Shown here: positions 21,177 to 26,534 of the stretch, piece after piece
Layout: every line of letters begins with the position of its first letter
How positions within the stretch are numbered: the stretch's first letter is position 1
Virus record (IMG/VR): IMGVR_UViG_2541047900_000007
Length of the DNA stretch: 33,326 bases
Source: a virus
Taxonomy: Duplodnaviria; Heunggongvirae; Uroviricota; Caudoviricetes
Direction: 5' to 3' (one strand)
The notes under the pieces: generated by a model
Told to the model about the DNA's origin: nothing
The model's database searches: none
The model's input: only the letters and a program-made list of their open reading frames with translations
Translations under genes and position numbers: made by a program

Positions 21177-21895
21177 CTGCCTCCCCATGTGAGATATCGC
21201 GGTGCCAGTTCGCGCAGGATGCGCTGCGGATAATGGCGGTTCTCCCGCCAGCTGGCCGCATTGCGTCCGGCATTCACCGTGGCGACATGTCCGAACCAGC
21301 GGGTGCTGTCCAGACCTTTCTGTGATGCAAGCCGCCTGTCCCGTTGTACCCAGCCCAGACCACCGTTATAGCCCGACAGTGTCATGGCCATACGCTCGCA
21401 GTCACTGGCGGCGCTGACACGCTGCCACAGCCAGCGGTCATAGCTGACCAGCGCCCGGATAGCCCATGCCGGATTAAACGGCTCACGACTGCTCAGCATC
21501 GGTATCAACTGGCTTATCCAGTCGGCAGTGGCAGGCATGAACTGCGCCAGTCCCTGAGCGCCAGCCGGCGAGATCGCATCAGGTCGCCAGCCGCTTTCCT
21601 GATGCAGTTGCGCGGCGAAATCGGCCACCGGCGCAGACAGTCCCCATTCAAGCCGGGCATTACGGATCACATCATCGCGATACTGCAGCGCAGCCTGCGG
21701 AGGTTGTGCTGCGCATGCCTGGCTAAAAAAGCCGCCACACCAGAGCAACATTGCGACAAAGAATACCCATGCCATATGAACCAGAAAGGTCCCGGCGCGG
21801 ACTGACAGGCGTTCGGTTCTGATGAAGACCCGAAAGGCTTCGAAAGCCAGTTTCAGGGACATGCATACAATCCAGGTGATCTGCGGCCAGTTCAT
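21155..21895 (-). CDS. endolysin, lytic transglycosylase (SLT domain) with N-terminal membrane segment (possible signal-anchor-release type)
   Basis: SLT-like motif ESGWRPDAISPAGAQGLAQFMP; hydrophobic N-terminus; starts 2 nt after the holin-like gene stop. Confidence 0.7.
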   Translation of the reverse strand: MNWPQITWIVCMSLKLAFEAFRVFIRTERLSVRAGTFLVHMAWVFFVAMLLWCGGFFSQACAAQPPQAALQYRDDVIRNARLEWGLSAPVADFAAQLHQESGWRPDAISPAGAQGLAQFMPATADWISQLIPMLSSREPFNPAWAIRALVSYDRWLWQRVSAASDCERMAMTLSGYNGGLGWVQRDRRLASQKGLDSTRWFGHVATVNAGRNAASWRENRHYPQRILRELAPRYLTWGGSSCVASG

Positions 21896-21897
21896 GA

Positions 21898-22248
21898 TTA
21901 AAGCCCCATCGCAACAGCCAGGCAGACCGCTGCAACAATCAGTGCACGGCGGATTAACGCAGCAGAAAACACCAGGTGAAGGCCGGTCTGTACCGGGAAA
22001 CGCCCTTCAGCCATCAGCCTGTCGTCATGTTTCAGGTACTGACCGGGACGGGCTTTGGGGAAGAGCGAACGGTCAAGCCAGTAACCCAGCACTGCTGCCA
22101 GCGTGATGAGTGCCAGCTTGTAGATCACAACAGGCAGCTGCTGTGGTGAGACCAGAGCGATGGCGCCCAGCAACAGCACTGAGGTCAGCAGCCAGCCGCT
22201 GAGGCGAGGTTTTTTAACAGGGGGAATGAATTTTTTCAGGTTTTTCAT
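21898..22248 (-). CDS. holin-like membrane protein
   Basis: Start moved to ATG 22248 (MKNLKKF...) preceded by AGGAGA; three hydrophobic segments; first gene of lysis cassette. Confidence 0.5.
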   Translation of the reverse strand: MKNLKKFIPPVKKPRLSGWLLTSVLLLGAIALVSPQQLPVVIYKLALITLAAVLGYWLDRSLFPKARPGQYLKHDDRLMAEGRFPVQTGLHLVFSAALIRRALIVAAVCLAVAMGL

Positions 22249-22267
22249 GTGTGTCTCCTTATCTGGT

Positions 22268-22327
22268 GGAGACAGCATCACAAATACAGGGCGCGAAGGA
22301 TTTTAAAGCGCGTTAAGAGAGCCGGGG
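22268..22327 (-). promoter_or_regulatory. candidate late promoter upstream of the lysis operon (class A motif)
   Basis: Minus strand reads TTAAAATC-N7-CCTGTATTTGTGA-N3-CTGTCTCC; same architecture and spacing as the site upstream of the I-like gene. Confidence 0.5.
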
Positions 22328-22378
22328 ATACGGGATGTGCAGGATAAACGATGAATTATTCACAGAGGAGAATACGAT

Positions 22379-22855
22379 ATGACGCACACACTGAATCCGG
22401 TCATCACTGTCACTGTGTCCGGTCCTGTGGGCAGCGGTAAAAGTTACGTACTGGCGCGGATAGAAGAGATGGTGAAACAGGAACTCGGAAACAGCGTCAT
22501 TGTCGATGCTGCTGACGTGGAGAATGAGCGCCGTATGAATGGCGAAGATCTGACGACCTGGCAGAAGCCACGGGGTGGCACAGTGATCAGGCTGGAGGAA
22601 TACACGGGACAGGGCCTGTTGTCATACGGCGAGGAGCGTATCTGTCGGACGAATGAGCTGCTGGATGTTATATGCCCCACGGGCCGGCAACCCTGGATAC
22701 TGCCCGATGCACTGCATGCCACCATTGCGGCACTGATGACAGTTTACGATCAGGAGCTGCTCATGAAGGAGTTACGTAAACTCACCGGTCAGCCAACAGA
22801 ATGTTGTTCGTCTCCGAAGTACGGCAAACAGGAAAACGCCCCGGATAATCCTTAA
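22379..22855 (+). CDS. small P-loop NTPase-like protein (Walker A GPVGSGKS), function unknown
   Basis: 158-aa ORF with GAGGAG ribosome-binding site; divergent from the lysis operon and convergent with the repressor-linked cassette. Confidence 0.55.
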   Translation: MTHTLNPVITVTVSGPVGSGKSYVLARIEEMVKQELGNSVIVDAADVENERRMNGEDLTTWQKPRGGTVIRLEEYTGQGLLSYGEERICRTNELLDVICPTGRQPWILPDALHATIAALMTVYDQELLMKELRKLTGQPTECCSSPKYGKQENAPDNP

Positions 22856-22874
22856 GATACCTCCTGAACAGAAA

Positions 22875-22890
22875 CAGCCCTGAAGGGCTG
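22875..22890 (-). terminator. putative intrinsic terminator of the leftward repressor-linked operon
   Basis: GC-rich hairpin CAGCCC-TGAA-GGGCTG three nt downstream of the stop at 22893, followed on the minus strand by TTTCTGTT. Confidence 0.4.
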
Positions 22891-22892
22891 CA

Positions 22893-23480
22893 CTAAAAAA
22901 AGAAGTGTATTATTGCCCAAACAGCTATAACGATGATTCCCAGCCCAAGAGCCGATTCTAACTTATCTTTGGCAGTCATTTTTACTGTTGTAGCGGGCGC
23001 AGGTAAGTCTTGCTGCTGTGGATTTTCTGTTAGTTGTTTACGAGAAGAAACATCGCCCCTGTTAGTTTGCTTCATGTTGATTACAGATGCGTTATGGGCA
23101 TTATCAGCAGCAATTGACTGAAGTTTTACAAAAGTTTTTGAATCTGTTTTAGCCAGAAGTAACCTATTTCCCGTAAACATTGCCTTAAAAGTGATAGTTT
23201 TTTTCGTCTTGTCCGCCGCACCAAGCAAACCTCCAATGACCAACCCTGCACCACCAAAGATTAATCCACCAAGCAAACCTGCGCCTGCCGCCTTACCTAT
23301 ACGGCTTTCCTCTTCACTATCCGCAAGTTCAATCGATAAAAGCTCTTCTTTCAGATTTAATACAATATTTTCAGGAAAGCCTTGTTTTGGTTTTTTGGCA
23401 AACACGATGGTACCGAACCCCATGCTTGCCCACCCTTTAGGAAAACTTCCTGCGATAACCTGAATCCCTGCCATGTTCAT
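22893..23480 (-). CDS. membrane protein with glycine-zipper segment and C-terminal anchor, function unknown
   Basis: GKAAGAGLLGGLIFGGAGLVIGGLLGAA glycine-zipper and C-terminal LGLGIIVIAVWAIIHFFF; ORF-track start is GTG 23483, ATG 23480 or 23474 more likely (AAGGTG upstream). Confidence 0.5.
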   Translation of the reverse strand: MNMAGIQVIAGSFPKGWASMGFGTIVFAKKPKQGFPENIVLNLKEELLSIELADSEEESRIGKAAGAGLLGGLIFGGAGLVIGGLLGAADKTKKTITFKAMFTGNRLLLAKTDSKTFVKLQSIAADNAHNASVINMKQTNRGDVSSRKQLTENPQQQDLPAPATTVKMTAKDKLESALGLGIIVIAVWAIIHFFF

Positions 23481-23564
23481 CACCTTTTACATTAAAATTT
23501 CAGAACGCAGCATGATGCCGCCTTTGTCTTTTTTCTGATCCCATGGTAATTCAGCTGTTATTTT

Positions 23565-24551
23565 CTATTTAAGAATAAAACGGTATTTACTGTCAGGAGT
23601 GCTTTGCTGATCAAGTAGCAGTGAACGACATGGAGCAGTCAAAACCCGAGCATAACTACCATCAGGGCTTATGTTAATGTAACAAACCTTGCCCTTAACA
23701 CTATAATTTTCGGGGACGGATGCCTTTGCTGATACAGTAAATTTAAGGGTATGCCAGCCCGTTTTTTGCTTGTAGCTTGAAACCGAATGGAAATCATCTG
23801 AGTACTTATTTAACCCTGGAAACATGCTGCGCAGTGCGGGGATGGAATCTTCTATTATTTTATCGTTGGTTTTAATGTTAAAAACGCTGGTTTCAGTAGA
23901 AGCTACTGCTTTGGCATTTCCCCATTTACCAGCGAACACAATCATTCCCACGAAAAATATTGCTACAAGAACTAACACTCCCCCCAACACTACTACATGA
24001 GGCTTCCGGCTTCTGGTTGGTACAGTTGCGACTGATTTTGCACCGCTTTCCGATGGAGGTGATAGAGTTTTACTCTCATCACGAATATTCAGCAGATCAT
24101 CAAAATAACCAAACACAGCCTGCAACTGCTCTTTGTCTAGGCCTTTAAGATGGGTTGTACCGAAATGCTTCAGACAGTATCTGTCACGGTCAAGACGATA
24201 CCCAGGGTCAGTAAGCGCCATTATTTTGCTGACCAGAAGATTACAGTCCTTCATATTCTGGATCTGTTGTGCATATCTCTGAAGGATCTCAACCGCACCA
24301 TGATAATCAGCCGCAGTCATTTCATTAACTGTTTTGGTATTAAGTTTCGTGTGGATCGTCATCCATAGCTCGCGCTTACTTTCCCCCAGATCAACCAATT
24401 CATCCATCAATCTGTGTAAATCGCGTTTTTGCAGCAACGAAATTGGTTGCTGGGCCGAAGGAAGTATGTCAGCAGAATAGTTATGAATGGTAACATCACC
24501 GCTGACAACGTTACCCACATCCCCGTTAACTGTTTGCTTCTCTTTACTCAT
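23565..24551 (-). CDS. bitopic membrane protein (cytoplasmic N-domain, one transmembrane helix, C-terminal domain with two Cys), function unknown
   Basis: 328-aa ORF; ATGA overlap with the repressor gene; central helix VVVLGGVLVLVAIFFVGMIVFAG. Confidence 0.55.
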   Translation of the reverse strand: MSKEKQTVNGDVGNVVSGDVTIHNYSADILPSAQQPISLLQKRDLHRLMDELVDLGESKRELWMTIHTKLNTKTVNEMTAADYHGAVEILQRYAQQIQNMKDCNLLVSKIMALTDPGYRLDRDRYCLKHFGTTHLKGLDKEQLQAVFGYFDDLLNIRDESKTLSPPSESGAKSVATVPTRSRKPHVVVLGGVLVLVAIFFVGMIVFAGKWGNAKAVASTETSVFNIKTNDKIIEDSIPALRSMFPGLNKYSDDFHSVSSYKQKTGWHTLKFTVSAKASVPENYSVKGKVCYINISPDGSYARVLTAPCRSLLLDQQSTPDSKYRFILK

Positions 24552-25009
24552 CTTCTCTTGGTATTTTTGTTCATTATTCCACCTGTTCCTATGGTTACGT
24601 TACCTTTGATAACATTCCCCAGAACATCTCCATGAATAACCTGTTCCGCCCGTTCTCTGGAGGAGCCAGTAGTCAAGGCCGACAAAACTGAACCTTTGAC
24701 CTGTAATGGTGCCTGCCGGTAGTGCTGCAGTAACTCCATTTCATCACGTGATAAAGTTATACCTGATGACTCCCCGGTAAGAATGAACTGTACATTGGCC
24801 CCAATTCTTGCAAAGGCTGCAAGTAACTCACCTCCGGGAACAGCAACCCCTCGTTCATATTTCCCCCACATTTCTCTTGAAACGCCACAAAGGGCTGCTA
24901 CTTCAGCCTGCTTGAGTGATAACCGCGAACGCTCAGCTTTGAACCGCGACGCGCAAAGAGAATCAAAATTCACATAAACCTCATTGACAATGAGAACAAT
25001 AGTTCTCAT
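24548..25009 (-). CDS. XRE-family helix-turn-helix repressor (candidate immunity repressor); true start probably internal (GTG near 24973)
   Basis: HTH pattern LKQAEVAALCGVSREMWGKYERG; divergent from Ner-like gene; ORF-track ATG 25009 sits inside the predicted early promoter -10. Confidence 0.65.
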   Translation of the reverse strand: MRTIVLIVNEVYVNFDSLCASRFKAERSRLSLKQAEVAALCGVSREMWGKYERGVAVPGGELLAAFARIGANVQFILTGESSGITLSRDEMELLQHYRQAPLQVKGSVLSALTTGSSRERAEQVIHGDVLGNVIKGNVTIGTGGIMNKNTKRR

Positions 25010-25012
25010 AAT
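24984..25012 (+). promoter_or_regulatory. candidate early promoter TTGACA-N17-CATAAT with palindromic operator ATGAGAAC-aata-GTTCTCAT in the spacer
   Basis: Read directly: -35 at 24984-24989, inverted repeat 24990-25009, -10 at 25007-25012; about 47 nt upstream of the Ner-like ATG with AAGGAG ribosome-binding site. Confidence 0.5.
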
Positions 25013-25059
25013 CTATCACATATAAAACAAACATCATTGCATCAACAAAGGAGACAACA

Positions 25060-25248
25060 ATGACTTCCGAACAAGTTAAAAATCTCTTCCGTCAGCGTGG
25101 TATCACGTTTACCCGCTGGGCCGAAGAACACGGCTACAGCCGCAATGAGGTCTATCGTGTTCTCAATGGACAGACCAAAGCTCGTTACGGCAAAGCCCAT
25201 GAAATTGCCGTAAAACTGGGATTAAAACCCACGTCAAATGCGGCATAA
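25060..25248 (+). CDS. ner: Ner-like DNA-binding protein (Cro analogue)
   Basis: 62-aa ORF, pattern FTRWAEEHGYSRNEVYRVLNG...IAVKLGLKP; first gene of rightward early operon. Confidence 0.6.
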   Translation: MTSEQVKNLFRQRGITFTRWAEEHGYSRNEVYRVLNGQTKARYGKAHEIAVKLGLKPTSNAA

Positions 25249-25300
25249 ATTTTCCACATATGCAACAGGTTATCACATATTGCAAAAATGGAAATGTGAC

Positions 25301-25609
25301 ATGAGTAAAGTAAATATTTCCAGTTCTGGGACCCGCATCCTACGTGTACTCAAAGCTCTACGCGGTCATGCTCTGAACGGTGTTTCTAACGGTGAACTGG
25401 CATCAGCCCTGGGGGAGTCCCCGGCGAATATCAATCGAGCACTTAATACCCTTATTGAAGAGGGACTGGCCATGAAATTAGAGAACGGACGTTTCGCACC
25501 GGGAATCCAGTTACTACAGATCGCCATGGCTCACAGTCACGAGATGGCGCGTGCACAGGATCGTATTAACGAAATCAACCAACGAGTTATTTCAGGTAGT
25601 CGTTTGTAA
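25301..25609 (+). CDS. winged-helix transcriptional regulator-like protein
   Basis: Start set to ATG 25301 (MSKVNISSSGTRILRVLKAL...); HTH-like segment GVSNGELASALGESPANINRALNTLIEEGL. Confidence 0.45.
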   Translation: MSKVNISSSGTRILRVLKALRGHALNGVSNGELASALGESPANINRALNTLIEEGLAMKLENGRFAPGIQLLQIAMAHSHEMARAQDRINEINQRVISGSRL

Positions 25610-25619
25610 GGAGTAATCA

Positions 25620-26534
25620 ATGGGACGCACCAAATCACCCGTTAACACTGAACTGAATGTTGAGGTTCCGCTGTCAGATAACATCAATGTCAATTTGAAC
25701 GCTATGACACAGCATCGCATGGAAATTATGCAGCAGTTTGGTGATGGACTGCCTTATGAACGTGATCGCATTGTTCACGAAGCACGTTTTTATATGGCGC
25801 AGAGTGCTGAATCTATGCTGGAAGCGGGTAAGCGGCTGATCATCTTAAAAGAAAATGAGCCACACGGTGATTTTACAAACATTTTAGAAAATGAACTCGG
25901 ACTTGCACCACAAGTTGCTCGCCGCATGATGCAAGCCAGTATGAAGTTTTTGGGAGAAGGTGATGAGCCAACAAAACGCTCAACGTTGAGCGTTTTGGGG
26001 AAAGCCAAACTGTACGACCTGATGGTTCTGGATAATGAAGAACTTGATGAATTGGCCGACGGCGGCACAGTTGCCGGCCTGACGCTTGACGACGTTGATC
26101 GCATGTCAGTACGTGAATTGCGTCAGGCCCTGCGCGAAGCGCGCGAAACCAACGCAGCACAACAGCGCGTACTCGCTGACAAAAATGAAAAAATAGACTC
26201 ACTCTCCACCAGACTGGAGAAGAAATCCCGTATTCAGCCGCCTGAGCCTGATGAAGAGGTTAAGAAGCTGCGGGCGGAAGTGACAGCATTAGCGGTTGAG
26301 GCGGAATCTGCTATCGCCGTTCGACTGTCCAGCGCTTTTGAGACGCTGTGCGCATATTGTGCTGAAAACATGATTGATACCCCCAGAGACTTCATGGCAG
26401 GCCTGGTCTGTCAACTGGAAAGCACAGCGCGTAGCCTGCGCTCCACATTTGACCTGCCGGATGAGCCAACAGGCAATGCCGCGCCTTCATGGCTGACTGA
26501 GCCGACGCCACAGATTAACGGGCTGGAGGCATAA
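25620..26534 (+). CDS. conserved hypothetical early protein (acidic, coiled-coil)
   Basis: 304-aa ORF directly upstream of the transposase gene. Confidence 0.55.
   Translation: MGRTKSPVNTELNVEVPLSDNINVNLNAMTQHRMEIMQQFGDGLPYERDRIVHEARFYMAQSAESMLEAGKRLIILKENEPHGDFTNILENELGLAPQVARRMMQASMKFLGEGDEPTKRSTLSVLGKAKLYDLMVLDNEELDELADGGTVAGLTLDDVDRMSVRELRQALREARETNAAQQRVLADKNEKIDSLSTRLEKKSRIQPPEPDEEVKKLRAEVTALAVEAESAIAVRLSSAFETLCAYCAENMIDTPRDFMAGLVCQLESTARSLRSTFDLPDEPTGNAAPSWLTEPTPQINGLEA

Follow-up and report, generated by a model that had tools for sequence, protein, structure and literature searches.

The window, a stretch of 33,326 nucleotides (IMG/VR virus record IMGVR_UViG_2541047900_000007), is a BcepMu-like (Bcepmuvirus) transposable prophage of E. 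coli. Genes for tail, head, terminase, and lysis functions are oriented leftward from ~22.2 kb, and a rightward set (Ner-like, IclR-like, DUF3102, transposase, and ExeA-like) begins at 25.06 kb. Many E. coli chromosomes match the region at 99.9% identity, and Escherichia phage PhiKM (Bcepmuvirus) is ~98.5% identical to the window over the shared arms. A small P-loop ORF lies divergent from the holin gene (start 22248, - strand) and faces three genes of the - strand (22893-25009), the last of which encodes an HTH repressor. The features of this locus are as follows.

22249-22378 (no strand): divergent intergenic region of 130 bp, common to the holin gene and the P-loop ORF
22365-22370 (+): Shine-Dalgarno sequence GAGGAG, read from the sequence, 8 nt 5' of the ATG and kept in related loci
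22379-22855 (+): P-loop ORF, ATG-initiated, 158 aa plus stop
22379-22606 (+): N module, a mini P-loop domain (residues 1-76), the sole part conserved across the wider family
22421-22444 (+): Walker A motif GPVGSGKS (residues 15-22), with G20 and K21 invariant
22496-22516 (+): VIVDAAD (residues 40-46) in strand 2, proposed as a putative Walker B in an initial annotation of the locus
22526-22531 (+): acid-base pair E50-R51 in the loop after strand 2
22580-22600 (+): strand 3, TVIRLEE (residues 68-74), a hydrophobic run ending in E74
22628-22798 (+): Z module (residues 84-140), three predicted helices (…WILPDALHATIAALMTVYDQELLMKELRKL…)
22834-22844 (no strand): recombination breakpoint (codons 152-156), where homology to PhiKM and to the 247-aa alleles ends
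22844-25007 (-): swapped immunity cassette of low GC (41-44%), three co-oriented genes and a terminator
22874-22891 (-): terminator-like hairpin that ends the cassette operon, 19 nt beyond the stop of the P-loop ORF
22893-23483 (-): 196-aa membrane protein, no family match
23565-24551 (-): Flk_N-like protein of 328 aa, apparently membrane-anchored, whose N-terminus matches NF007987 (flagellar regulator Flk, E=2.9e-12)
24548-25009 (-): HTH repressor

The window protein (WP_000149906.1 in RefSeq, with the product name 'ABC transporter ATPase') is mildly acidic (pI 5.0) and soluble and has no membrane segment. Its residues 1-157 match positions 1-157 of the 242-position profile of PHROG 3787, a family with no function assigned (E=2.1e-107, 359 bits). 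The gene is carried by 571 of 5426 complete E. coli genomes and is chromosomal in every case. The initial annotation had called the protein an orphan, a term that does not suit a member of a syntenic and widespread phage family. In the literature, PHROG 3787 is unmentioned and nothing useful was found on E. coli BcepMu-like prophages. A scan of genome contigs gave only a Citrobacter braakii locus among the matches listed, which mostly reflect the Walker A pattern.

The gene had been described as pointing at the repressor cassette from a position without counterpart in Mu. Both statements hold, the element being BcepMu-like and not Mu-like. No homologue of the P-loop gene is detectable in BcepMu itself, and tblastn against 50,697 phage records found PhiKM only. 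The interval between repressor and holin in BcepMu is organised differently from that of the window and contains gp18-gp20, all on the holin strand. The gene is syntenic solely in enterobacterial BcepMu-like relatives. E. coli prophages with three or more different cassettes have it adjacent to the holin gene, as do PhiKM and a more distant BcepMu-like viral contig (L013). In those prophages and in L013 it starts 131 bp from the holin gene and is always divergent from it.

The intergenic region (22249-22378) is identical in PhiKM and conserved in prophages with different immunity cassettes. As prophages with different repressors retain this promoter region, the P-loop gene is probably expressed independently of the immunity repressor. 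A sigma-70 promoter scan upstream of the ORF found no + strand consensus, a repeat search found no operator-like repeats common to this region and the early promoter region, and Rfam gave zero matches over 21500-25500. The best sigma-70-like promoter of the region (TTGACA-17-CATAAT, 11/12) is at 24984-25012, directed at the Ner-like gene and overlapping the start codon of the repressor gene, which is divergently oriented. This segment is the probable early promoter and operator region.

Homology between the window and PhiKM (blastn) stops at 22843, in codon 155 of the P-loop ORF, and restarts at 25008. Among E. coli genomes, 435 align only to ORF nt 456-466, which is the signature of the long allele, and ~135 span the window-type junction at 95% identity or more. 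At the junction the GC content falls from ~55% to 41-44%. This breakpoint, the long-allele matches, and the GC drop mark 22844-25007 as an exchanged cassette. In PhiKM, the same interval encodes the third module of the P-loop protein, a 71-aa product, and a Dam methylase. The PhiKM counterpart (XRL29432.1, a hypothetical protein of 242 aa) is also encoded next to the holin gene and belongs to the same PHROG. It is 92% identical to the window protein over 157 residues, but the window allele lacks its last ~85-90 residues (the third module), the other cassette starting in codon 155. Since homology ends inside codons 152-156, the last ~4 codons and the stop are supplied by the cassette. The commonest E. 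coli clusters encode 247 aa and include the third helical module. The 158-aa form is thus a minority allele, C-terminally shortened by exchange of the adjacent cassette, a point overlooked in the initial annotation, which on the whole is partly supported. The shortened gene marks the left edge of an exchangeable immunity region in BcepMu-like prophages.

The Ner-like, IclR-like, and DUF3102 genes (window 25008-26424, aligned with L001 5282-6698) are only 82% identical to PhiKM and are flanked by sequence of ~98% identity. The exchangeable region therefore begins at the 3' end of the P-loop gene and stops shortly ahead of the transposase gene. Within the cassette, the 328-aa and 196-aa proteins may be superinfection-exclusion genes, by analogy with BcepMu gp17-gp18. 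A functional link between the P-loop protein and the Dam methylase, which is encoded 3' of the gene in PhiKM, was considered and rejected: the methylase is absent from the window, and other alleles have opposite-strand genes between the methylase and the P-loop gene.

An exhaustive HMMER profile search of 1.84 billion representative proteins identified 66 relatives. Beyond the close E. coli alleles, these share positions 1-75 only, and the shared part is almost always at the N-terminus (protein lengths 70-364 aa). A second search brought in many further stand-alone forms (70-90 aa), along with some proteins of 119-136 aa. The order of elements in this N module is strand 1, Walker A, helix 1, strand 2, a loop with E50/R51 and W61, and strand 3 ending in E74. 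Conservation was counted over 66 non-redundant homologues, with identity as low as ~30%. G20 and K21 are present in all 66, G15 and S/T22 in 64 each, G37 in 60, I28 in 58, E50 in 57, R or K at position 51 in 50, and W61 in 45; some relatives have an altered loop (GAESSGKN). With G20 and K21 invariant and G15 and S/T22 nearly so in such diverged homologues, the Walker A motif is no chance occurrence. The earlier claim of a genuine small protein of 158 aa with a clean Walker A is therefore borne out by the ORF, its ribosome-binding site, these invariant residues, and the dN/dS values given below. Its Walker B assignment fares worse. Within VIVDAAD, D43 is found in only 20 of the 66 homologues (position 46 is D or E in 51), and E74 is conserved instead (55 of 61 non-gap). 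Because E74 is conserved and ends a hydrophobic strand (IFKLEE or VFVLSE in relatives), it is the better candidate for a Walker-B-like acid.

What follows the N module is variable. The Z module recurs at the extreme C-terminus of the otherwise different proteins P0034 and P0036, and it is found without the N module in P0067 and P0069. Other relatives have unrelated helical segments past residue 75, with no Pfam match. An E. coli allele of 141 aa is divergent past residue ~134, and the two-module N+Z form arises naturally elsewhere, at 141 aa in E. coli and at 155 aa in a relative. Stand-alone proteins consist of the N module alone. Examples are a 71-aa protein from a Yersinia mollaretii prophage, a 71-aa protein from an Acinetobacter pittii prophage, and A0A516MII4 of BFVD, all with the same invariant G, GK[ST], E-R, and terminal Glu. 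They occur in lambdoid, P22-like, and other phages, not in transposable ones. The frequency of such forms (70-90 aa) shows that the N module can do without a C-terminal partner. In one further protein (P0087; L019 1919-2398), a PG_binding_1 domain (E=4.7e-15) is fused ahead of the mini P-loop module; as its only source is a single 2.9-kb contig, misassembly or a frameshift may have produced the fusion.

Comparison with a diverged allele gives dN/dS values of 0.15 (codons 1-75) and 0.30 (codons 76-133), and between the window allele and PhiKM the value is 0.35. On these values (0.15-0.35), the P-loop ORF is a real accessory gene under purifying selection. An antisense ORF of 93 aa (22444-22725, - strand) was discarded, since the substitutions follow the pattern of the + frame. 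Frameshifted copies abound in databases and assemblies, which fits dispensability. Together with the loss of strand 3 in an allele of 182 aa, they weigh against an essential role.

That 182-aa allele (P0028/P0030; L005/L006 6001-6549) has in-frame deletions of residues 51-86 and 96-124, so that strand 3 and E74 are gone and the frame into the third module is intact. The deletion ends fall at short repeats (E-R / E-R and ELL / ELL). The N module can therefore be crippled while the frame persists.

A rival reading takes the window copy as a decaying remnant, a non-functional truncation that arose by cassette recombination and hitch-hikes in the prophage. The breakpoint inside the ORF, the loss of the C-terminal ~90 residues of the common allele, the many frameshifted or shortened E. 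coli copies, and the internal deletions of the 182-aa allele all agree with this. However, three 158-aa clusters (P0001, P0006, and P0008) that are mutually 83-97% identical all end in ...PDNP, and the largest contains 369 sequences. As such distinct lineages share the terminus, the short allele has persisted and diverged and is no fresh accident. The low dN/dS values include comparisons with the window allele itself, the N+Z architecture arises independently in the 141-aa and 155-aa forms, and N modules that stand alone are common. Decay is thus an unlikely explanation.

Every context examined for relatives with the N module is a phage. In a Yersinia prophage, the mini P-loop gene begins where a LysC-like lysis gene stops, 5' of HNH and terminase genes. 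In an Acinetobacter prophage, a P22-like metagenome contig, and one more temperate-phage contig, it lies between HNH and small terminase genes. Among unrelated temperate phages, the stand-alone gene is just 3' of the HNH endonuclease gene in three loci (L009, L010, and L015) and just 5' of it in a fourth (L008), and in all four it is shortly upstream of the small terminase gene. In prophage-like loci, one of them from an NCBI genome assembly, it is at the end of the early-left operon beside the excisionase and integrase genes. In larger phage contigs it is near TubZ-like, DNA ligase, or Acb2/Tad1-like genes. No single partner gene recurs across the contexts examined. These neighbourhoods are typical positions of accessory genes.

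Some of these positions suggest a lysis or late-gene factor, acting for example in holin/endolysin timing or at the start of packaging, under control of a bidirectional late promoter region in common with the holin gene. The constant divergence from the holin gene across the conserved 130 bp, the Yersinia homologue that begins at the LysC-like gene stop, the several stand-alone homologues between HNH endonuclease and small terminase genes, and the fusion to a peptidoglycan-binding domain are in keeping with such a role. Yet other homologues are in early-left operons by the integrase gene or in large phages near DNA ligase or TubZ genes, the protein is mildly acidic without a membrane segment, and the fusion is known from one 2.9-kb contig. 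Moreover, in lambdoid phages the stretch that separates the lysis or nin genes from the terminase genes is a hotspot for morons in general. A role in lysis or late functions is thus as unlikely as decay.

The window protein was modelled with AlphaFold2 from an alignment of 36 sequences (mean pLDDT 62.6; 70-79 in the structured parts). The prediction has a strand (residues 8-13), a helix (21-39), a strand (41-43), a low-confidence loop, and a strand (69-74), followed in the C-terminal half by helices at 83-98, 110-122, and 125-136. A model of the 247-aa allele from a shallow alignment (pLDDT 52) was left out of the fold search. Foldseek found no significant match for the window protein model in the PDB, and among viral models the sole significant match was the 72-aa family member A0A516MII4 (BFVD, E=1e-4). 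Sequence searches of Pfam, NCBIfam, PADLOC, and PDB gave sub-threshold matches only, limited to strand 1, Walker A, and helix 1. The best PADLOC-DB match (E=0.007) covers only the Walker A segment, so that membership in a defence system is not indicated.

The family profile, searched against the PDB, matches many P-loop NTPases over the β1/Walker A/α1 segment. The sole longer match is 9jix, 'De Novo Designed ATPase PL2x4_2', which aligns over positions 8-76 (E=2e-4); another match is 6c2u, a 'phosphate-loop protein' (E=3e-3). Both are artificial, and the likeness reflects the generic P-loop consensus and is silent on function or descent. Among the closest known systems are P-loop NTPases of the kinase/GTPase class, such as thymidylate kinase, pantothenate kinase, and dethiobiotin synthetase. 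Because matches are confined to the Walker A region apart from the alignment with a designed minimal ATPase, the N module is a stripped-down P-loop unit outside any characterised NTPase family.

Of the P-loop kinase-like fold proposed in the initial annotation, the AlphaFold2 model shows the strand, Walker A loop, and helix, with only three strands present. The more specific idea of a compact P-loop nucleotide or polynucleotide kinase, phosphorylating a small molecule or a nucleic acid end, is very unlikely. Bit scores are 12.9 for guanylate kinase (cut-off 263) and 12.5 for uridine kinase (cut-off 180), and phmmer against the PDB gives E>=0.18 only. A confident homology to a housekeeping kinase, which had been named as grounds for giving up the earlier account, was thus looked for and none was found. 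For kinase lid or acceptor regions, there are no conserved residues past position 75 except in the exchangeable helical modules, and the N module does not form a core parallel sheet of at least five strands.

An ABC-transporter or KAP-type ATPase subunit, as implied by the RefSeq product names 'ABC transporter ATPase' and 'KAP family NTPase', is refuted at the level of sequence, since PF00005 reaches 13.6 bits against a cut-off of 25 (residues 4-49 only) and KAP_NTPase (PF07693) 14.6 against 20 (residues 4-43 only), both covering just the Walker A segment, and since the 158-aa protein has no ABC signature, Q-loop, H-loop, or transporter partner genes. The initial annotation was thus right to consider it too small for an AAA+ or ABC ATPase. 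Alleles of the gene are variously named 'ABC transporter ATPase', 'KAP family NTPase', 'P-loop NTPase fold protein', and 'hypothetical protein'; the first two names are not supported, similarity in the Walker A region alone lying beneath both.

The best overall explanation is a selected modular P-loop accessory protein, which would serve as a nucleotide- or phosphate-binding switch or adaptor with exchangeable target modules. We give this reading a probability of roughly 40%. The identity and architecture of the window protein as described above are held with high confidence. The mechanism, a switch that binds a phosphate ligand and contacts variable targets through its helical modules, is a tentative proposal. 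The mini domain would correspond to the first three strands of the kinase/GTPase-class P-loop fold. It would keep the phosphate-binding loop and one strand-terminal acid and lack the hallmarks of kinases and ABC ATPases. The N module would bind a nucleotide (most likely) or another phosphate ligand and act as a small switch or oligomerisation unit, its sheet possibly completed by self-association or by a partner. Contact with variable targets, of the host or of the phage, would fall to the exchangeable helical modules. The role would then be a dispensable accessory function in host interaction or counter-defence, not that of a metabolic enzyme. Three-strand P-loop units are not known to bind NTP unaided in nature, the loop is altered in some relatives, and the 182-aa allele has lost strand 3 and E74, all of which weigh against this reading.

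A bolder form of this reading, which we consider quite unlikely, takes the N module of ~70 residues as an autonomous natural 'half P-loop', binding its ligand alone or as an oligomer and used phage-wide as a tool of host interference or counter-defence. Such a unit might sequester a nucleotide signal or act as a decoy for a host P-loop NTPase. If so, no natural P-loop protein family would be smaller, and this one is absent from Pfam and NCBIfam.

About one in ten complete E. coli genomes carry the gene under the misleading name "ABC transporter ATPase". The protein is already in databases as a hypothetical protein or PHROG member, and its presence in this prophage is unsurprising. What is new is a phage-wide mini P-loop domain of ~75 residues, undescribed in Pfam and NCBIfam, with an invariant phosphate-binding loop and three strands only. 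Also new are the spread of this module, its modular partners, and the cassette-truncated nature of the window copy. Should the domain prove to bind nucleotides, it would offer a natural parallel to the minimal P-loop units from protein-evolution work and might represent a new accessory function of temperate phages.

On the holin side of the divergent region, an inverted repeat (GTCTCC-N9-GGAGAC, 22253-22273, in the - strand holin mRNA) overlaps the holin Shine-Dalgarno sequence. Its stems are preserved in two diverged prophages (L003 and L005) and the loops vary. Because of this overlap, the leader hairpin could sequester the ribosome-binding site of the holin gene.
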